Assembly: GCA_024542985.1 (NCBI GenBank)
Contig: JAMXCX010000001.1
Location: 3,137 to 67,136, forward strand
Reading direction: 5' to 3'
Source: Candidatus Omnitrophota bacterium
GTDB taxonomy: Bacteria; Omnitrophota; Gorgyraeia; Duberdicusellales; 4484-171
Length of the DNA stretch: 64,000 nt
Both the position numbers and the translations under genes were made by a program. Positions 4,579 to 63,284 of the stretch are shown here, one piece after another. Each line of letters begins with the position of its first letter. Within the stretch, counting starts at the first letter, position 1. Below the pieces are notes generated by a model that had not been told where the DNA came from, did no database searches, and saw only the letters and a list, made by a program, of their open reading frames with translations.

Positions 4579-6438
4579 TTACTCCCTCGTCCTGGTCACA
4601 TAAAAATGCATGTTCAGCACTTTCATGGTTAAGGTGACATTCGGAACACTAGGGATAAAATATTCTAACCGCATACGATAAGTTTTTCCCGGAGTTAATT
4701 CTCCGGCATCGATATTGGTGCCGGCAAAAATAGTAAAAGCATTGGTAAAATCCTTTTGATGAAGCATACTGGAATGTTCCTGTATAACTTCTTCTTCACC
4801 GGCAGCGTTAAATCCATAAAGCATAGCCCGTGTGAAAAAATAAGCTTGATTAGCCCCAATAAGCGGTATGTCGGGATTCTCTGAATTAACCTCCCAAAAA
4901 ATCGCAAAGGATTCCCCGCTCTTAGGCACAAATTCATAAAAAAAGTCTCCATCAATTTCGCTATAGCAAGCAGTGCAATCCCATTCAGTCGGCTCACCGG
5001 CAAGGCATGCCTCAGCCATTATTAGCAGCTGGCCGCAAAAGCCTGAATCTAAAGAGTGTGTAGCACATGTTGCATCGTCGCCACTAACAGCATTTTTACC
5101 TAAGCCTATTTCTCCGCAACAATAATGCTCTGGTTCAGGCAATTGAAAATCAGGTAAAGTTCCGATTTCATCATCCCAATCCAATACGCCCTTAAGGTCT
5201 GGATCTGACCTTTCATCGCATGACCTAGGGCTACAGTTCTCTTGGAAACTGAAACCTGTTCCGCTGCATTCCTGGGGAGTTCCATCAGGCCATGTATCAG
5301 GACAACATATATTAGCCTCACAACAACTAACTTCTTTTAAACACCTTTCTAAATCTTGGGTATAAGTTATGCACTCACCAGTATAATCCCTAAAATCGTC
5401 ATCCGGCACATATTGATAGCAAGTTGGGATCGGATCCGGCGGGTCCGGCGGGTCTGGATCCGGGTCCGGGTCTCCGCCACCGACATTATCGCAATCAAAC
5501 CAACCATCAGCAACTTTATCATCAATATCCTTTAGCTTAACGCACTTTTTATCACTGTCTTTAACAAGACAATGCTTATTGGGTTTATTGCAAGGACTAT
5601 CCGTACAGGCAAAACAGGCTGGGTCACCGGCAGGTATCATTAAAAGGCCGGCTAGCTTTTTATCTGTATTTAGAGAACTCTGCTGTTGAGGAGGGATAAA
5701 ATCTGCCGGACAACTATCACCGGTAAGAACATCAGTAGGGTCTTTGTAATAATCATCTGAGGTGCTGGCTACATCCTTAAAAAATCTTTCCCTATAGTAC
5801 CCACTCAATGTAGGACTGCCATCCGGCCTACATCCGCTAAAAACAGGAAAAATATCGGGATCAGTACAATGCCATTCACCTGTTATAGGAGGAAACCTCT
5901 CACACCTTGCATCATCATTATCACTGGTGCCTGGATTAGGGTCAGTATTAGGACAACCTCTTGGTTGAGCCCCGTCAATAGGCCCAAGTGGTGTTTGGGT
6001 AGGAGGTACAGCATTAGTATCACCGTCAAGATAACTGCAGTCATTAAATTCAGTCCAGTCACCAGGCTGCATGTCAGTCTCACTACAAGTAAAAGGCGTA
6101 CGCTCACAACCATACCTGGCATTATGGTCTGCGGTGCATTTATACTTCTTTTCATATCTACTAGCAGGGTCTTCTACCAAGCAACAATCCGGGCATTGCC
6201 CTTGCGTTGTCAAAGTTATACATCTTGAGCACTGAGCACTCATATCAAGAAGATGTTGAACATCACAAGGGACAGTACCTAGGATGACATCGCCAACTGC
6301 AACCCAAGATATCTCATCACTGCTTTCATCACGCGCAATCCGGGCAATACTTGCAGTCCTTCTGGCATAAACAAATTGGGTGATAATTGTAAAAAATAAA
6401 AGTACTAGGATTATCCTAAACCATAGTAATTTCTTCAT
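4579..6438 (-). CDS. large cysteine-rich secreted protein with (DP)n linker; putative pilus-associated adhesin
   Basis: Start placed at MKKLLWFRIILVLLFF (ATG 6436-6438, GGGGGGAAGG Shine-Dalgarno upstream). About 50 Cys in recurring C..C/CC patterns; GGGDPDPDPDPPDPPDPIP linker; Cys-free C-terminal ~150 aa domain. Sits between pilin gene and secreted paralogs. Confidence 0.65.
   Translation of the reverse strand: MKKLLWFRIILVLLFFTIITQFVYARRTASIARIARDESSDEISWVAVGDVILGTVPCDVQHLLDMSAQCSRCITLTTQGQCPDCCLVEDPASRYEKKYKCTADHNARYGCERTPFTCSETDMQPGDWTEFNDCSYLDGDTNAVPPTQTPLGPIDGAQPRGCPNTDPNPGTSDNDDARCERFPPITGEWHCTDPDIFPVFSGCRPDGSPTLSGYYRERFFKDVASTSDDYYKDPTDVLTGDSCPADFIPPQQQSSLNTDKKLAGLLMIPAGDPACFACTDSPCNKPNKHCLVKDSDKKCVKLKDIDDKVADGWFDCDNVGGGDPDPDPDPPDPPDPIPTCYQYVPDDDFRDYTGECITYTQDLERCLKEVSCCEANICCPDTWPDGTPQECSGTGFSFQENCSPRSCDERSDPDLKGVLDWDDEIGTLPDFQLPEPEHYCCGEIGLGKNAVSGDDATCATHSLDSGFCGQLLIMAEACLAGEPTEWDCTACYSEIDGDFFYEFVPKSGESFAIFWEVNSENPDIPLIGANQAYFFTRAMLYGFNAAGEEEVIQEHSSMLHQKDFTNAFTIFAGTNIDAGELTPGKTYRMRLEYFIPSVPNVTLTMKVLNMHFYVTRTRE
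5433..5474 (-). repeat. imperfect in-frame hexanucleotide repeat (GGRTCY x7) encoding the (DP)n linker of the Cys-rich protein
   Basis: ggatccggcgggtccggcgggtctggatccgggtccgggtct on plus strand; encodes DPDPDPDPPDPPDP on minus. Confidence 0.5.
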
Positions 6439-19063: not shown

Positions 19064-19323
19064 ACCTGCCTGCTGTGTAGTTCTTCACAGTTTCAGTAAC
19101 AAGAAAGCAAAGATATGCAATAACAATTTTTGAGGAGGCTCTGAGGCCTTAAAAGCAAGGTATCCAGACCGAAGGGATGGATTTTTAAGGCCGAAGCGCC
19201 AGGCAAAAGTCCTGCCTGCTGCCGGCAGGCAGGACTTTTGGGTCCCAGAAAATTGTTAATGTATATCCATGGTCTTTTATCAAATGTTACCGAAATTCTG
19301 AAGTTGTACACGGTAGGCAGGCC
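19064..19323. promoter_or_regulatory. symmetric array of GC-rich CCTGCCTRC motifs (outer imperfect inverted repeats plus central palindrome CCTGCCTGCTGCCGGCAGGCAGG) directly upstream of the permease promoter
   Basis: 19066 fwd, 19211 fwd, 19224 rev, 19313 rev copies; a TTGAGC-16-TATGAT promoter lies between the left arm and the permease ATG. Confidence 0.4.
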
Positions 19324-26660: not shown

Positions 26661-26683
26661 TACCTACCTGCCGGTAGGTAAGG
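26661..26683. repeat. GC-rich palindromic motif TACCTACCTGCCGGTAGGTAAGG (variant of CTGCCGGCAG family) ~45-65 nt upstream of mazG
   Basis: Read directly. Confidence 0.45.
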
Positions 26684-55418: not shown

Positions 55419-55443
55419 CCTTGCCTGCCTGCCGGCAGGCCTG
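55419..55443. repeat. GC-rich palindrome CCTTGCCTGCCTGCCGGCAGGCCTG (CTGCCGGCAG family)
   Basis: Between tRNA-Gly 3' end and ptsN start; followed by CTGTTTGCTAAAAAACAG hairpin. Confidence 0.5.
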
Positions 55444-55505: not shown

Positions 55506-55579
55506 AGCGGAGGAAGGGAATTGAACCCTCAACCTTCACGTTGGCAACGTGACGCTCTAGCCGATTGAGCTACCCCCGC
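55506..55579 (-). tRNA. tRNA-Gly(GCC)
   Basis: Minus-strand GCGGGGGTAGCTCAATCGGCTAGAGC... cloverleaf; anticodon loop TTGCCAA; T-arm GAGGGTTCAATTCCCTT. Confidence 0.8.
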
Positions 55580-55659
55580 AGTTACAGCTATAAGCTATAA
55601 GCTTTAAGTTGTAAGTATAAAGAGCAAGCACTTTCTAGCGCTGTAGCGAAATCGGGAAA

Positions 55660-55745
55660 CCGATTGTTCAATGAGACTTGAACTTTTGCAAGTAGTAAGG
55701 CTCAGCAAAAGTTCTTAGTCGAATTAATCCCGACGAGCGCAGCGA
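55660..55745 (-). repeat. inverted copy of ~85-nt intergenic repeat family (see 58871-59040)
   Basis: Reverse complement aligns to the unit1/unit2 junction of the rpsB-upstream tandem repeat (…gtcgggattaattcgactaagaacttttg… and …caaaagttcaagtctcattgaac…). Confidence 0.55.
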
Positions 55746-55752
55746 TGTCGGG

Positions 55753-55815
55753 GAGCTACCCCCGCAATTATAGCTTTAAGCTACAAGCGGTAAGCTGTAA
55801 GCTTTAAGTTGTAAA
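55753..55815 (-). other. duplicated 5' end (14 nt) of tRNA-Gly plus upstream leader (direct repeat of 55567-55625, period ~187 bp)
   Basis: gagctacccccgca + ...agct(t/a)taagct...gctttaagttgtaa(a)g repeated; copies flank the inverted repeat element. Confidence 0.5.
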
Positions 55816-58813: not shown

Positions 58814-58870
58814 AGTACTTTTCCTCCTTACAATGCTGATACTCAGCACAAGTTTCAACTACACAGTTTT

Positions 58871-59040
58871 TCTTCGCTGTTGGCTCGAAAAACTATAAGT
58901 CTCATTGAGCCCTGCGACGCTACTCGCGTCCCAGGATTAATTCAACTAAACACTTTTGGGCGCTTCGCTTCAAAAGTGTAAGTTTCATTGAACCCTTGGG
59001 GTTAAAACCCTAAGGGTTTCCTGCGTCGGGATAAGACTAA
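58871..59040. repeat. two diverged tandem copies of an ~85-nt intergenic repeat (unit1 58871-58960, unit2 58961-59040)
   Basis: Shared blocks: cttcgct...aaaa(c/g)t(a/g)taagt(c/t)tcattga(g/a)ccc ... gcgtc(cca/g)gga(t)taa...actaaa; also present inverted at 55660-55745 and in modified form at 61091-61225. Confidence 0.55.
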
Positions 59041-59167: not shown

Positions 59168-60985
59168 CTATTCAGAAAATTGTAAATCGTAGAACTTTTT
59201 ATATAAACTATTTGCTTTTAATAATTGCTGATGTGTTCCTACCTCAGCAATTCTACCTTTATCCAAAACGGCTATTCTATCGGCCTTTTGGATAGTGGAA
59301 AGCCGGTGGGCAATAACAAAAGAAGTTTTTCCTTCCATTAAGGCATAAAGAGCATCCTTTATTAATTGCTCGGATACAGAATCAAGATGGCTAGTTGCCT
59401 CATCTAAAATCAAAATAGGCGCGTCTTTTAAAATCGCCCGGGCAATAGCAATTCTTTGTTTCTGGCCTCCGGACAATCTAAAGCCTCTGTCACCTACAAT
59501 TGTATTGAAATTTTCCGGCAATTTCATAATAAACTCATAGGCATGAGCTTTTTTGGCTGCTTCGATAATTTCAGAAGATGAAGCTCCCTCTTTCCCGTAA
59601 GCGATATTATCTTTTATGGTCGTATTAAAAAGAACAGTCTCTTGAGAAACAATTGAGATTAGGGAACGCAGGTCTTTTAATTTAACTTCTTTTATATCTA
59701 AACTATCTATACAAATTGTTCCCTTCTGCGGGTCATAAAATCTCAGCAATAATCCCACCAGGGTAGTTTTACCTGCCCCAGAATGCCCAACCAAAGCCAG
59801 CACTTCTCCCTTTTTTACCTCTAAATTAATATCTTCCAATATATAGCCATCTTCCTGGTTATACTCAAAACTAATTCCCTTAAAGGCAATTTGAGCACGC
59901 AGTTGCTTTAATCCTTTAGCTTCCCCTGCGTCTTTTATTGTAGGCTTTTGTTCTAGAATTTCATAAATCCGTGCAGATGCTGCTAGAGCTTTTTGGTTAA
60001 TGGCATGGACATTGGCTAATTTCTTTAAAGGACGTATCATAGACAAAAGAAAAATAAGAAATGTAGCAAAAACACCAAAAGAAAGCTTACCCGCAAGTAA
60101 CTCCGAGGATATTATGCACATGACTGCTATACCTCCTGCAATACCAAAAAATTCAGTCAAAGGTGATAATAGAAGGATTCTCTTAGTGCTTTTCAAAGTG
60201 AATTTATAATAATCCTGATTGATATTTTTAAATCTCTCCATTTCATAACTCTCACGGCAAAAAGCCTTTACAACATGTGCACCCTGGATGGTCTCTTGCA
60301 TTTGGGAATTTAAATCCGCTATTTTCTTTTGCACCTCTACGCTGAATTTTTTAACTCGCTTGCCTATCCTTGCAACCGGAATCATTATCGGCGGAAAAAT
60401 AAAAAAAATAACCAAGGGTAATTTCCAAGATATCTGAAAACCAATCCAAAGAGCCATAAAAACAAAAAATACCAATTTCATTGACTCAAAAATAAAATCC
60501 CTAAGGGCGTAAGAAATTGCATTGGTAATTATAGCAACATCATTGGTAACGCGGGACATTAATTCTCCCACCCTTTGTTTACCGTAAAAATCCAGGGATA
60601 AATCCTGTAATTTAGCATATAATTTATTTCTTACATCCTTTACTACACCTTCACCGACAACATTCATGAGGTAACCCTGCAAGAAGATGAATAGCCCTTT
60701 AACCAGAAACAAAATCGGCAGAAATACAACCATGTACTTAAAAAACACTGCCGGTTCTATTGAATTTAATTTCTCAACAATATCAGCTAAAAATTGAGGT
60801 AATTGACCGGGAATAACTATCGGTTTGTTGGTAAACACTCTATCGGTTAGAGGCCCCATCATGCCTAAGCTTATCCCCTCAAAGATAGTAGATGCCCCCA
60901 TGCAAAGAGCTGCCACAGCCAGGGTTTTGATATAAGACCTTGCAAACTTAAGCAATTTAAAGTATTCTTTCAGGTGTTTTTTCAT
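59168..60985 (-). CDS. msbA: ABC transporter permease/ATPase, MsbA-like lipid exporter
   Basis: Six-TM N-terminal domain plus Walker A GHSGAGKTTL, signature LSGGQKQRIAIARAIL; start chosen at ATG MKKHLKE (track ORF begins at TTG 12 nt upstream). Confidence 0.8.
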   Translation of the reverse strand: MKKHLKEYFKLLKFARSYIKTLAVAALCMGASTIFEGISLGMMGPLTDRVFTNKPIVIPGQLPQFLADIVEKLNSIEPAVFFKYMVVFLPILFLVKGLFIFLQGYLMNVVGEGVVKDVRNKLYAKLQDLSLDFYGKQRVGELMSRVTNDVAIITNAISYALRDFIFESMKLVFFVFMALWIGFQISWKLPLVIFFIFPPIMIPVARIGKRVKKFSVEVQKKIADLNSQMQETIQGAHVVKAFCRESYEMERFKNINQDYYKFTLKSTKRILLLSPLTEFFGIAGGIAVMCIISSELLAGKLSFGVFATFLIFLLSMIRPLKKLANVHAINQKALAASARIYEILEQKPTIKDAGEAKGLKQLRAQIAFKGISFEYNQEDGYILEDINLEVKKGEVLALVGHSGAGKTTLVGLLLRFYDPQKGTICIDSLDIKEVKLKDLRSLISIVSQETVLFNTTIKDNIAYGKEGASSSEIIEAAKKAHAYEFIMKLPENFNTIVGDRGFRLSGGQKQRIAIARAILKDAPILILDEATSHLDSVSEQLIKDALYALMEGKTSFVIAHRLSTIQKADRIAVLDKGRIAEVGTHQQLLKANSLYKKFYDLQFSE

Positions 60986-61015
60986 GGTTAAAATCAAGGA
61001 ATTTTACCACACCGA

Positions 61016-61044
61016 TTGACTTTTCACAAGAGATTTGATACAAT
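61016..61044 (+). promoter_or_regulatory. sigma70-like promoter TTGACT - 17 nt - TACAAT driving the plus-strand leader/Gfo-lpxB operon
   Basis: Read directly; only near-consensus -35/-10 pair in this divergent intergenic region. Confidence 0.45.
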
Positions 61045-61098
61045 CAGCAAACAGAAAACAACGGACAGATCGCTAATTTCTGACATCTGACTCTTGAA

Positions 61099-61183
61099 AT
61101 GGAGCCCCACCCGGGCTAAAGCCCGGGGTTCCCTTAGGGGCGCAATCCCTGCCTACCGGCAGGCAGGCCCGACCCGCCTCCAT
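61099..61183 (+). ncRNA. structured GC-rich 5' leader element closed by AUGGAG/CUCCAU helix (candidate riboswitch-like or attenuator RNA)
   Basis: Contains hairpin CCCGGGC-UAAA-GCCCGGG, CCCUUAGGGG and the palindrome CCUGCCUACCGGCAGGCAGG; related to the 85-nt repeat family. Confidence 0.35.
61147..61170. repeat. GC-rich palindromic motif CCCTGCCTACCGGCAGGCAGGCCC (CTGCCGGCAG family) in msbA / Gfo-lpxB divergent region
   Basis: Read directly; lies inside the structured plus-strand leader. Confidence 0.45.
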
Positions 61184-61184
61184 T

Positions 61185-61211
61185 CTCGGTCTAAAGGCCG
61201 AGGTTTTGTGG
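61185..61211 (+). terminator. intrinsic-terminator-like hairpin CUCGGUC-UAAA-GGCCGAG followed by GUUUUGUGG, 17 nt before start codon at 61228
   Basis: 7-bp GC-rich stem (one G-U) with tetraloop and U-rich tail on the plus strand only. Confidence 0.4.
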
Positions 61212-61227
61212 CGTCGGGATAAACGAT

Positions 61228-62130
61228 ATGAAAGCAGGAATAATAGGTATAGGAAAATTAGGAAGCATACACTTACGTATCTATAAGGAGCTCAAGGAAA
61301 TAAGTAAAATATACCTTGTAGATATAGATAAAAAAAAATTAGCTGCCCACAATTATTTGGCTACCTTTAATGATTACAAGCAATTAAAGGACAAGGTTAA
61401 TCTTGTAAGCATTGCTACCCCTACACCTAGCCATTTTAAAATTGCTAAGTTCTTCCTTGAGAATAAAATTCCCGTGCTGGTAGAAAAACCTCTTACCCAG
61501 AATGCAAAAGAAGCAGAAAAACTAGTAGAGATATCCCGAAAACACAAAACCCTCCTTTTTGTCGGGCATGTTGAAAGATACAATAATGCCTATCTGGCAA
61601 TAAAAAAAATTATTACTACTCCTCTATTTATAGAATGTCATCGCCTAAGCCTATATCCTCATAGATCATTAGATACCAGTGTTGTACTTGATTTAATGAT
61701 TCATGACTTAGATATAATTCTTGATCTTCTAAAAGATAAAGTAAAAAAAGTAGAGGCAAAAGGAGTAAAGGTGCTTTCACCTTCTCAAGACATAGCTAAT
61801 GCCCGCATAACTTTTTCAAAAGGCTGCGTTGCCAATATAACATCCTCGCGGATATCAACAAAGAAAGAAAGAAAAATCCGAATATTTATGCCGAATCTCT
61901 ATATTTCTCTGGATTACGCCCAGCAAACAGTAGAAATTTATAGAAAAATAAAGAAAAAGATAATAAAAAAAATTCTCACCATAAACAAAGAAGAACCTCT
62001 AAAAAAAGAAATAGCCGCTTTTGTGAATTTGGTCAAGACAAAGAGCTTTTCTTTGGAATATGCTGATAAAGCGAAGGATGCTTTAAAGCTTGCGCTAAAA
62101 ATACAAAAAATCATTGAAAACAGCGGCTAA
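61228..62130 (+). CDS. Gfo/Idh/MocA family NAD-binding oxidoreductase (possible GnnA-like UDP-GlcNAc 3-dehydrogenase)
   Basis: MKAGIIGIGKLGSIHLRIY Rossmann N-terminus...EKPL motif; immediately upstream of lpxB. Confidence 0.7.
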   Translation: MKAGIIGIGKLGSIHLRIYKELKEISKIYLVDIDKKKLAAHNYLATFNDYKQLKDKVNLVSIATPTPSHFKIAKFFLENKIPVLVEKPLTQNAKEAEKLVEISRKHKTLLFVGHVERYNNAYLAIKKIITTPLFIECHRLSLYPHRSLDTSVVLDLMIHDLDIILDLLKDKVKKVEAKGVKVLSPSQDIANARITFSKGCVANITSSRISTKKERKIRIFMPNLYISLDYAQQTVEIYRKIKKKIIKKILTINKEEPLKKEIAAFVNLVKTKSFSLEYADKAKDALKLALKIQKIIENSG

Positions 62131-62183: not shown

Positions 62184-63284
62184 ATGAAAAAGATAATTAT
62201 TGTAGCCGGAGAACCTTCAGGCGATTTATACGGAAGCCTATTAGCAGAAAAATTAAAAACTAAATTCCCCTCTTTAGATATTTTCTCTTTTGGCGGACCA
62301 AAACTAGCCAAACACTCTAAACAGTTAATTAATCTTCTTAATTACTCGGTTTCAGGAATAATAGAAGTACTCTCACACTTAAGGAGAATACTCAAAGTTT
62401 TTAAAGGAGTCCTACAATATATCCACGATATAAAACCCGACTTAATAATACTTATTGATTTTCCTGACTTCAATTTACGGCTGGCAAAAACGCTCAACAA
62501 AAAATTTCCTATTTTTTACTATGTAAGCCCTCAAGTCTGGGCCTGGAGAAAAAAAAGAATAAGTTTAATTAAACAACTCGTAGAAAAAATAATTGTGATT
62601 TTTAAGTTTGAAGAAAAATTCTATCAAAATGAAGGCATAAATGCTCTTTACTTCGGACATCCTTTGTTGGATGTAATTAAAAAACAGGGTATTAATACAA
62701 AAAAAATAATATCTTTACTACCCGGTTCACGGAAAAACGAAATACAAAAACACTTACTTTTAATGCAGCAAACAAAAACAATTTTACAGAAAGAGTTACC
62801 TGGCTATTCTTTTCGGATATTAAAACCACAAAATATAGAAAAAACTTTTTATGAAGAATTTCCTCTGGACACAGATATAGAAATAACAGACTATTCTTAC
62901 CAAGCAATTGAAGAATCAAAATTTATTATCGCCTCTTCAGGAACAGCAACCGTAGAAATTGCCATATTAGAAATTCCTTATATAATCATATACAAAGTTA
63001 ATCCTATAAGCTGGTATATCCTAAAAAGGTTAGTAAAAACAGACTACATTGGTATGGTTAATATTCTGCAGTCGAGGAAAGTAGTCACTGAATTGCTGCA
63101 AACTCAAGCAACACCTGACAATATCGCTAAGGCCTCTCTAAGGTACCTAAAAAATCCTCAAGAGTATTCGCAATTAAAATCCGCTTTAGGCAAAACCAAA
63201 GAAATACTTTCTCCTTACGGAGCAACAGAAAAATTCACTGATTTTATAGCTCAATATTTAGAACTTAAAAATTCCCAAAAGTGA
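62184..63284 (+). CDS. lpxB: lipid-A-disaccharide synthase
   Basis: KIIIVAGEPSGDLYGSLLAEKLK N-terminal LpxB signature; 366 aa. Confidence 0.85.
   Translation: MKKIIIVAGEPSGDLYGSLLAEKLKTKFPSLDIFSFGGPKLAKHSKQLINLLNYSVSGIIEVLSHLRRILKVFKGVLQYIHDIKPDLIILIDFPDFNLRLAKTLNKKFPIFYYVSPQVWAWRKKRISLIKQLVEKIIVIFKFEEKFYQNEGINALYFGHPLLDVIKKQGINTKKIISLLPGSRKNEIQKHLLLMQQTKTILQKELPGYSFRILKPQNIEKTFYEEFPLDTDIEITDYSYQAIEESKFIIASSGTATVEIAILEIPYIIIYKVNPISWYILKRLVKTDYIGMVNILQSRKVVTELLQTQATPDNIAKASLRYLKNPQEYSQLKSALGKTKEILSPYGATEKFTDFIAQYLELKNSQK

Follow-up and report, generated by a model that had tools for sequence, protein, structure and literature searches.

A GC-rich hairpin mosaic in the leader of a Gfo/Idh/MocA-lpxB operon of an uncultured Omnitrophota bacterium

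What is a long, GC-rich and strongly folded stretch of DNA doing between the promoter and the first gene of an operon whose relatives mostly have no leader? The question is raised by the window, the 64,000-nt stretch of DNA from an uncultured Omnitrophota bacterium that we analyzed (mean GC 37.5%, or 0.375), in which a spacer of ~183 nt separates a promoter from the start codon of a Gfo/Idh/MocA-lpxB operon. A preliminary description took the arrangement for a transcription-attenuation riboswitch or leader or, alternatively, for an sRNA of ~160 nt ending at a terminator, and regarded the lipid A operon behind it as an attractive point of control. To our knowledge, the Omnitrophota are a phylum without a genetic system.

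The operon and its promoters

The msbA-like ABC transporter gene (59168-60997, − strand) and the Gfo/Idh/MocA oxidoreductase gene (61228-62130, + strand) diverge from a spacer of 230 nt. The oxidoreductase gene, with its ATG at 61228, is the first of the operon and lpxB (62184-63284, + strand) is the second. Both gene assignments made earlier were confirmed, and an Omnitrophota MAG has a protein with 100% identity to Gfo/Idh/MocA of the window. The leader block is not an assembly artefact: the strain has been assembled a second time (L086), and the two versions agree at every position over 5 kb, the block included. The lack of a Shine-Dalgarno sequence upstream of the Gfo/Idh/MocA gene says little, because such sequences are used by few genes in this genome (11 of 65).

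The near-consensus promoter of the preliminary description is present on the + strand at 61016-61044. It consists of TTGACT (61016-21) and TACAAT (61039-44) with a 17-nt spacer, scores 10/12 and has an extended −10, the TG being at 61036-37. Transcription of the operon probably starts near 61050. On the − strand, and overlapping this promoter, is the divergent promoter of the msbA-like gene, TTGTGA-17-TAAAAT with TG (61001-61029). In 36 loci the −10 of this promoter, which reads ATTnTAcCACAT on the + strand and TGTGGTAnAAT on the − strand, shows conservation of 90% or more, although it falls in a part that was left free in the search pattern ATTGACTTTNNNCAAGNNATTTGATANNAT. The block ATTnTAcCACATcaATTGACTTTnCaCAAGgnATTTGATAnnAT, whose left part is the reverse complement of the extended −10 TGTGGTAnAAT, is conserved in 36 distinct loci, and we conclude from this that the operon promoter is real and old.

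A promoter scan of the region recognized no second promoter for the operon, and none between the last hairpin of the block (H4, described below) and the AUG. Given that the conserved promoter is the only recognizable one and that none follows H4, the GC-rich block must be co-transcribed with the operon, probably as a 5′ UTR of ~177 nt.

Leaders of the orthologous loci

Orthologous msbA<>Gfo/Idh/MocA-lpxB loci were gathered via protein and exact-protein look-ups and a metagenome scan with the pattern ATTGACTTTNNNCAAGNNATTTGATANNAT. A profile search of contigs with a protein alignment returned mostly distant homologues among the matches listed, and at least three useful loci. The preliminary description had named the absence of conserved structure at such orthologues as an outcome that would refute its reading, and this is the outcome obtained. 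In 22 of the 36 loci the start codon is 6-10 nt past the −10 box (e.g., GTTAAAT-ATG), the spacing of a leaderless mRNA; the rest have leaders that are unrelated. The distance from the −10 to the start codon in the latter is 15-16 nt (n = 2), 33-45 nt (n = 2) or 74-188 nt (~10 distinct loci).

The ~10 long leaders (74-188 nt) are mutually unrelated in sequence, and most are hairpins with arms made of tandem ~7-nt repeats, the exception being the unstructured 74-nt leader of L001. The arms are CAGANNN / NNNTCTG in four loci (L085, L090, L091 and L107), AGTTCAT / ATGAGCT in L081 and, with a different core, AGACCNA / TGGTCTT in L083; the leaders of L107 and L111 have nested layers. The palindromic leaders of the relatives fold with z-scores of −4 to −8, and a sense-strand test based on G-U pairs gave no consistent preference, so these hairpins fit palindromes at the level of DNA.

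The GC-rich block is absent from all 36 distinct orthologous loci compared and was seen only in the window strain and the identical L086. It is thus lacking in each of the closest relatives by amino-acid identity (L085, 82%; L083, 80%; L081, 79%; L084, 77%): L084 is leaderless, L085 has the CAGA hairpin only, and the alignment of the GC-richer core of the L083 leader with the block did not exceed shuffles. The GC content of the leader is 0.57 in the window versus 0.11-0.44 in the longer leaders (15-188 nt) of the relatives, and two 8-nt leaderless spacers in relatives reach 0.62-0.75. A recently evolved regulator would also be compatible with such a lack of conservation, which is one point to be set against the reading that we prefer below.

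In all the relatives with long leaders the hairpin sets in within 0-8 nt of the −10 box and leaves 4-9 nt between its end and the AUG. This regularity, and the leaderless state of most relatives, would suit a leader that is processed: an RNase III-like cut near the base of the 3′ helix would leave a very short 5′ end and restore near-leaderless translation. The slot could then tolerate any hairpin, and the mechanism would cover the heptamer-repeat hairpins of the relatives as well. There is a precedent in Haemophilus influenzae, in which RNase III cleavage of a heptamer-repeat hairpin in the 5′ UTR of hmw1A raises expression (PMC12721329). The argument for the Omnitrophota is drawn from sequence throughout, however, and the GC-rich block, being a chain of short hairpins and not a long duplex, would be a poorer substrate for RNase III. 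We consider processing of this kind rather unlikely.

A broader possibility, which we find doubtful but worth stating, is that in this Omnitrophota clade the few bases separating transcription start and start codon of an ancestrally leaderless operon are a hot spot where quasi-palindromic DNA is repeatedly inserted, expanded or replaced, in the form of heptamer-repeat hairpins or of GC-rich hairpin mosaics. The hairpins would be tolerated, or would serve as fast-evolving tuners of expression in a manner resembling phase variation, the reason being either removal of the RNA by processing or an effect of the number of repeats on expression, and the GC-rich block of the window would be one extreme allele. 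If this were true, an ultra-small bacterial lineage that is uncultured would have a phase-variation-like system acting on the biosynthesis of its envelope.

Composition and folding of the GC-rich block

The spacer after the promoter holds, at 61097-61222 (+ strand), a block of stacked hairpins with a GC content of 64-74% (64% for the block as a whole). Its peak of 0.74, over 80 nt, is the highest in the 64 kb and tops that of the three tRNA genes. The + strand of the block folds with −64.5 kcal/mol (z = −3.37), and none of 200 dinucleotide shuffles was as stable, so its structure exceeds chance; the long, GC-rich and structured leader of the preliminary description is in this sense real. The − strand folds with −58.0 kcal/mol (z = −1.34), and the + strand is thus better by 6.5 kcal/mol and also by z-score. 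The better fold of the + strand, together with a U-tract hairpin ahead of an operon with a lipid A gene, would also fit a functional RNA and counts to that extent against the reading as a mosaic.

Between the promoter and the block is a degenerate quasi-palindrome of CAG heptamers (61045-61096, + strand; CAGCAAA CAGAAAA CAACGGA CAGATCG / ..TTTCTG ACATCTG AC). It folds weakly (−6.4 kcal/mol, z = −1.1) and gave no signal in TRF. By its sequence it looks like the remnant of a CAGA/TCTG repeat hairpin known in relatives, and the closest relative, L085, has a complete CAGA hairpin at the equivalent position. The GC-rich block itself is not a tandem repeat.

All the sequence elements listed in the preliminary description are found where it placed them, and on the + strand the block includes three hairpins and a mini-palindrome. 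H1 (61110-61127) is CCCGGGC-UAAA-GCCCGGG, followed by GGUU. H2 (61131-61140) is the mini-palindrome CCCUUAGGGG, the GGGGC of which pairs in the minimum free energy (MFE) structure with GCCCC at 61104-08 and so encloses H1. H3 (61148-61167; CCUGCCUACCGGCAGGCAGG) is CCUGCCU-ACCGGC-AGGCAGG. The terminator-like site, H4 (61184-61211), is UCUCGGUC-UAAA-GGCCGAGG with the tail UUUUGUGG; it has 8 bp, two of them G-U, and a folding energy of −11.2 kcal/mol, and its core CUCGGUC-UAAA-GGCCGAG (61185-202) is followed by GUUUUGUGG. Both the hairpin and the tail proposed as a terminator therefore exist, but the region has one terminator-like site where shuffled sequences have 1.1, and H4 alone is not above chance.

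The preliminary description had an AUGGAG/CUCCAU helix closing the domain. The two strands are there, AAUGGAG at 61098-61104 (+ strand) with a 7-nt inverted match, CUCCAUU, at 61178-61184, but the helix is absent from the MFE and centroid structures of the whole block. It is crossed by a stronger helix, CCCGACCCGC (61168-77) / GUGG-CGUCGGG (61207-18), which encloses H4. The 3′ module formed in this way (61168-61218, + strand) folds with −28.9 kcal/mol (z = −3.78), accounts for 53% of the ensemble and is predicted to end 9 nt before the AUG.

Crossing helices of this kind (AAUGGAG/CUCCAUU and CCCGACCCGC/GUGGCGUCGGG) give alternative folds, as would be expected of a strain-specific conditional attenuator or riboswitch, in which the upstream hairpins would sense a ligand, a protein or an sRNA and set termination at H4 and its UUUU. 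Also in keeping with such a device are the strong promoter, the structured GC-rich RNA, the U-tract hairpin located 17 nt ahead of the AUG and the better fold of the + strand. These are features of a generic layout, however. Neither of the alternative helices competes with the H4 stem, and a terminator/antiterminator switch is not evident; the single terminator-like site equals the shuffle expectation; and the modules of the block recur at unrelated intergenic sites. As we find neither a homologue in the data, and hence no covariation, nor a match to an Rfam family (see below), we regard a conditional attenuator as unlikely.

A stably structured stretch of ~160 nt is framed by the promoter and the terminator-like hairpin, which is what an independent sRNA, transcribed from this promoter and terminated at H4, would look like. 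Against it stands the promoter itself: it is the conserved promoter of the operon and its only recognizable one, and in 22 relatives it abuts the start codon and drives a leaderless mRNA. With no promoter between H4 and the AUG, an efficient stop at H4 would silence the whole Gfo/Idh/MocA-lpxB operon, and no homologue of the block was found elsewhere in 346 kb searched with the model described below. This alternative of the preliminary description is thus very unlikely. For the same reason, namely that full termination would silence the operon, any termination at H4 must be partial.

Searches for known families and homologues

A search of the whole window with Rfam 15 at gathering thresholds returned three tRNAs and nothing else, and so no family for the leader, for which such a check had been suggested. 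E-value scans of three intergenic regions with Rfam gave only tRNAs. In a permissive E-value scan of 60900-61350 the best match was HgcC (RF00062), on the − strand, with 18.6 bits (E = 0.04). The block resembles HgcC in its high GC content and structure within a genome rich in AT, but the match falls well short of the gathering score of 50 and the strand is wrong for the only promoter, and the block is not a member of that family.

No homologue turned up when 346 kb of related Omnitrophota contigs were searched with R1, a covariance model of the block. The other matches of the model were to the opposite strand of its own interval, to the palindrome described below (in a tRNA spacer of L098 and at 26663 in the window), to the module upstream of rpsB and, weakly, to L114 (10 bits). 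The block shares with the attenuation riboswitches and leaders of Rfam the order of promoter, structured 5′ UTR, hairpin with U-tract and first gene. It differs in having no family match, conservation, covariation or visible competing antiterminator, and in that the orthologous operons are leaderless. Membership in riboswitch or conserved attenuation leader families, as the preliminary description would have it, therefore fails on both family match and conservation.

BLASTn-short comparison of the leader with the window and the loci recovered only the palindrome and one 12-mer. BLAST against plasmids and phages and a scan of viral contigs with H1 gave only a 30-nt match to a Natrinema plasmid, which reads as chance. 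An open reading frame of 42 codons on the + strand (61094-61222) stays open through the GC-rich stretch and has its stop 5 nt before the AUG, beside the start codon of the operon, as a leader peptide or small protein might. However, it starts with TTG and has no Shine-Dalgarno sequence, its comparison with 1.84 billion representative proteins yielded nothing but matches to the consensus of TPR repeats that are attributable to chance, and stop codons are expected to be absent from GC-rich DNA in an AT-rich genome. We consider a coding function highly improbable.

Four other kinds of element were considered and rejected. A tRNA-like cloverleaf was negative with both ARAGORN and Rfam, the skew has no inflection of the kind that would mark a replication origin, and the defining ends of an integron attC site are absent. 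For a MITE, the ends of the block (TTGAAATGGAG... and ...GGGATAAACGAT) have no terminal inverted repeats and no target-site or direct duplication; the sole inverted 7-mer of the block, AATGGAG/CTCCATT, is internal.

Modules of the block and their dispersal

The block is a mosaic, and three of its parts are repeated within it or elsewhere (module sequences CCTGCCTRCCGGCAGGCAGG, CGGNCTAAAGNCCGRGGTT and GYGTCGGGATAA). H1 and H4, each with its GGUU, are direct repeats (CGGGCTAAAGCCCGGGGTT and CGGTCTAAAGGCCGAGGTT) that are identical at 16 of 19 positions. Their alignment score is 23 versus a null of 11.7 ± 2.0, and was reached by none of 500 shuffles. One difference between the two stems, C-G to U-A, is compensatory, and another, G-C to U-G, leads to a wobble pair. 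No copy of this unit was found outside the block in the ~75 kb of the genome that were searched.

H3 is a copy of a dispersed family of intergenic palindromes. Three copies of its core, CCTRCCGGYAGG, are present in the window, each of them between genes, where none is expected by chance. The relatives of the H3 palindrome, all intergenic, are at 26663-83, at 55420-40 and, as a fourth and variant form, at 19211-33. The palindrome is also present in a related genome, in a tRNA spacer (L098:400-420).

The third part, at 61188-61222 (+ strand), is shared with the msbA-rpsB spacer upstream of rpsB (59000-59034) and consists of a hairpin with a UAAA loop followed by GUUUyyUG(G)CGUCGGGAUAA. The two segments (repeat D18) have an exact 12-mer in common, and their alignment scores 25 versus a null of 15.7 ± 2.0 with a maximum of 22. 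Further module copies were absent from the added sequence (8 kb from L086 and 3 kb from L125). The dispersal described here was seen within a sample of 72-75 kb of the genome, a scope that also bears on how far the block may be read as a mosaic of dispersed repeats.

In combination, we consider it probable that the GC-rich leader is a strain-specific, REP/BIME-like mosaic of short GC hairpins that sits in a hypervariable slot, bounded by the start of transcription and the start codon, and has constitutive effects. Ancestrally, as still in most relatives, the conserved promoter would produce the mRNA of the operon without a leader. Insertion or expansion of palindromic DNA would have filled exactly this slot in some lineages. 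In the window strain the inserted parts would be the H1/H4 unit, present twice, one copy of the dispersed palindrome (H3) and the 3′ module in common with the spacer upstream of rpsB. Such an insertion would give a structured leader to an mRNA that otherwise has none, and the last hairpin and its short U-tract may terminate part of the transcripts. The helix at the 3′ end of the leader, close to the AUG as predicted, may add to these effects. The effect of the leader is most likely a constitutive damping, or a change in the stability or translation of the mRNA, and would not be responsive to a signal; sensing of a ligand is probably absent.

The locus is also a caution, as a textbook layout of promoter, leader and terminator before an attractive operon is here a strain-specific patchwork of repeat-type hairpins, and pursuing this leader as a lipid A riboswitch would call for RNA data first. 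The more interesting lead is the slot itself, which reaches from the start of transcription to the AUG and is hypervariable in an operon that otherwise has no leader. Most members of the clade combine a conserved pair of back-to-back promoters with a leaderless mRNA for Gfo/Idh/MocA and lpxB, and about a quarter of the lineages have unrelated long palindromic leaders in exactly this position. Should expression be tuned or phase-varied by these leaders, in the manner of the hmw hairpin, they would offer a new handle on envelope regulation and repeat dynamics in the Omnitrophota.

Comparison with known repeat systems

The nearest counterparts of the GC-rich block, as to kind, are REP/BIME/REPIN elements, and the hypervariable leaders around it are closest to hairpins of simple sequence repeats in 5′ UTRs. 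For the latter, the hmw1A hairpin is the nearest model. Like it, the leaders of L081, L083, L085, L090, L091 and L107 have tandem 7-nt repeats in the predicted 5′ UTR, a long hairpin between promoter and start codon and hypervariable length, and the degenerate CAG-heptamer part of the window leader may be a remnant of such a hairpin. They differ in that both arms of the Omnitrophota hairpins are repeat arrays. RNase III processing and phase variation, moreover, belong to the hmw1A side of the comparison, whereas the Omnitrophota leaders are known as sequences.

Heptanucleotide repeats (STRR) with small dispersed repeats nested in them have reportedly been described in cyanobacteria by Mazel et al. 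in 1990 and Elhai et al. in 2008. These systems would resemble the Omnitrophota leaders in having intergenic 7-nt arrays with small palindromic units in or beside them, sometimes nested, but they are from another phylum and have other sequences. The small dispersed repeats (SDRs) have been cited as a class related to REPINs (PMC3116915).

The same work describes REPINs and notes that REP clusters can form by insertion beside or into existing copies (PMC3116915). The block shares with REP, BIME and REPIN elements the short GC-rich imperfect palindromes in extragenic, transcribed DNA and the occurrence in mosaics with other motifs; several copies per genome, a further trait of such elements, were seen for part of the modules in the ~75 kb searched. 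H1, H3 and H4, with stems of 7-8 bp in the msbA/gfo spacer, are palindromes of this type. The block differs in that one module has only 3-4 copies in 64 kb, and in being sited in a 5′ UTR where REP elements are more usually 3′ or intercistronic; the doublet organization of REPINs is not demonstrated for it. Within ~75 kb, copy numbers are uneven: three of the H3 core in 64 kb plus the variant at 19211-33, two, weakly, of the 3′ module, and none of H1/H4 outside the block. That variant is inside a second GC-rich, multi-hairpin intergenic block at 19126-19285, which is the sole region of the window to fold as stably as 61097-61222.

Leaderless Spacing and Leader Hairpins at the Gfo/Idh/MocA-lpxB Operon

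Most of the clade has a leaderless Gfo/Idh/MocA-lpxB operon: in the 22 orthologous loci compared with the window promoter (61016-61044), among them L084, L092, L097, L110, and L124, the -10 box is followed by the ATG after 6-10 nt. In the window's genome, a strong Shine-Dalgarno motif precedes only 11 of 65 genes. Its mnmG gene also has leaderless-type spacing (TGGTAAAAT-N7-ATG), read in L086, a second assembly of the same strain, at the equivalent of window positions ~65120-65140.

Long 5′-leader hairpins occur just 3′ of the promoter match in the related loci L081, L083, L085, L090, L091, L098, L104, L107, and L111. Both arms of these hairpins consist of tandem repeats of ~7 nt, sometimes of 10-11 nt, and the sequence is distinct for each lineage; those of L107 and L111 have nested layers. 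A long hairpin with repeat arms is also present at L094:3486-3569. Related loci totalling 346 kb contain five hairpins with CAGA/TCTG clusters, compared with none in 20 shuffles. Four of them lie in the leader slot between the operon promoter and the Gfo/Idh/MocA start codon, and the fifth is upstream of a different gene (L094).

The same 30-nt promoter pattern was detected upstream of a NusA-like ORF on unrelated contigs (L099:12239-12400 and L102:5134-5300), where it is followed by a short leader that carries a hairpin and a T-run (GGGCCGGCTTTTTT). This match is probably a coincidence.

Repeats Near rpsB and the tRNA Genes

A repeat unit comprising TCAATGARACTT, an AT-rich hairpin, TAGTYGAATTRATCC and a GC hairpin is present in two copies upstream of rpsB (58860-59035, - strand), between the msbA stop and the rpsB start, and in one copy next to tRNA-Gly (55716-55730). 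Its 15-nt motif recurs, in either orientation, in two related genomes (L081:915-929 and L123:441-455). The unit, which had no Rfam match, could be a dispersed element or a portion of the rpsB leader.

The first 13 nt of tRNA-Gly(GCC) (GAGCTACCCCCGC, + strand) are present again 186 nt away (55567-55814). Each 13-nt copy is followed by an array of AGCTNTA heptamers (55586-55620 and 55772-55814), and together the copies and arrays bracket a structured insert of ~130 nt with TCAATGAGACTT...TAGTCGAATTAATCCCGACG. Additional copies of the palindrome CCTRCCTGCCGGYAGG lie downstream of the tRNA cluster (55420-55440), between co-directional genes (26663-26683) and, in a related genome, within a tRNA spacer (L098:400-420).

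Other GC-Rich Structured Sites

The most stable 110-nt fold of the window (-54 kcal/mol) is at 19126-19285, an intergenic, GC-rich multi-hairpin block downstream of a 940-aa gene. Within it, AAAAGTCCTGCCTGC-TGCC-GGCAGGCAGGACTTTT looks like a bidirectional terminator. At 5431-5472, a tandem repeat, (CGGGTCCGG)n / (CGGGTC)n, which appears to sit inside coding DNA on the - strand, forms a 67% GC island.
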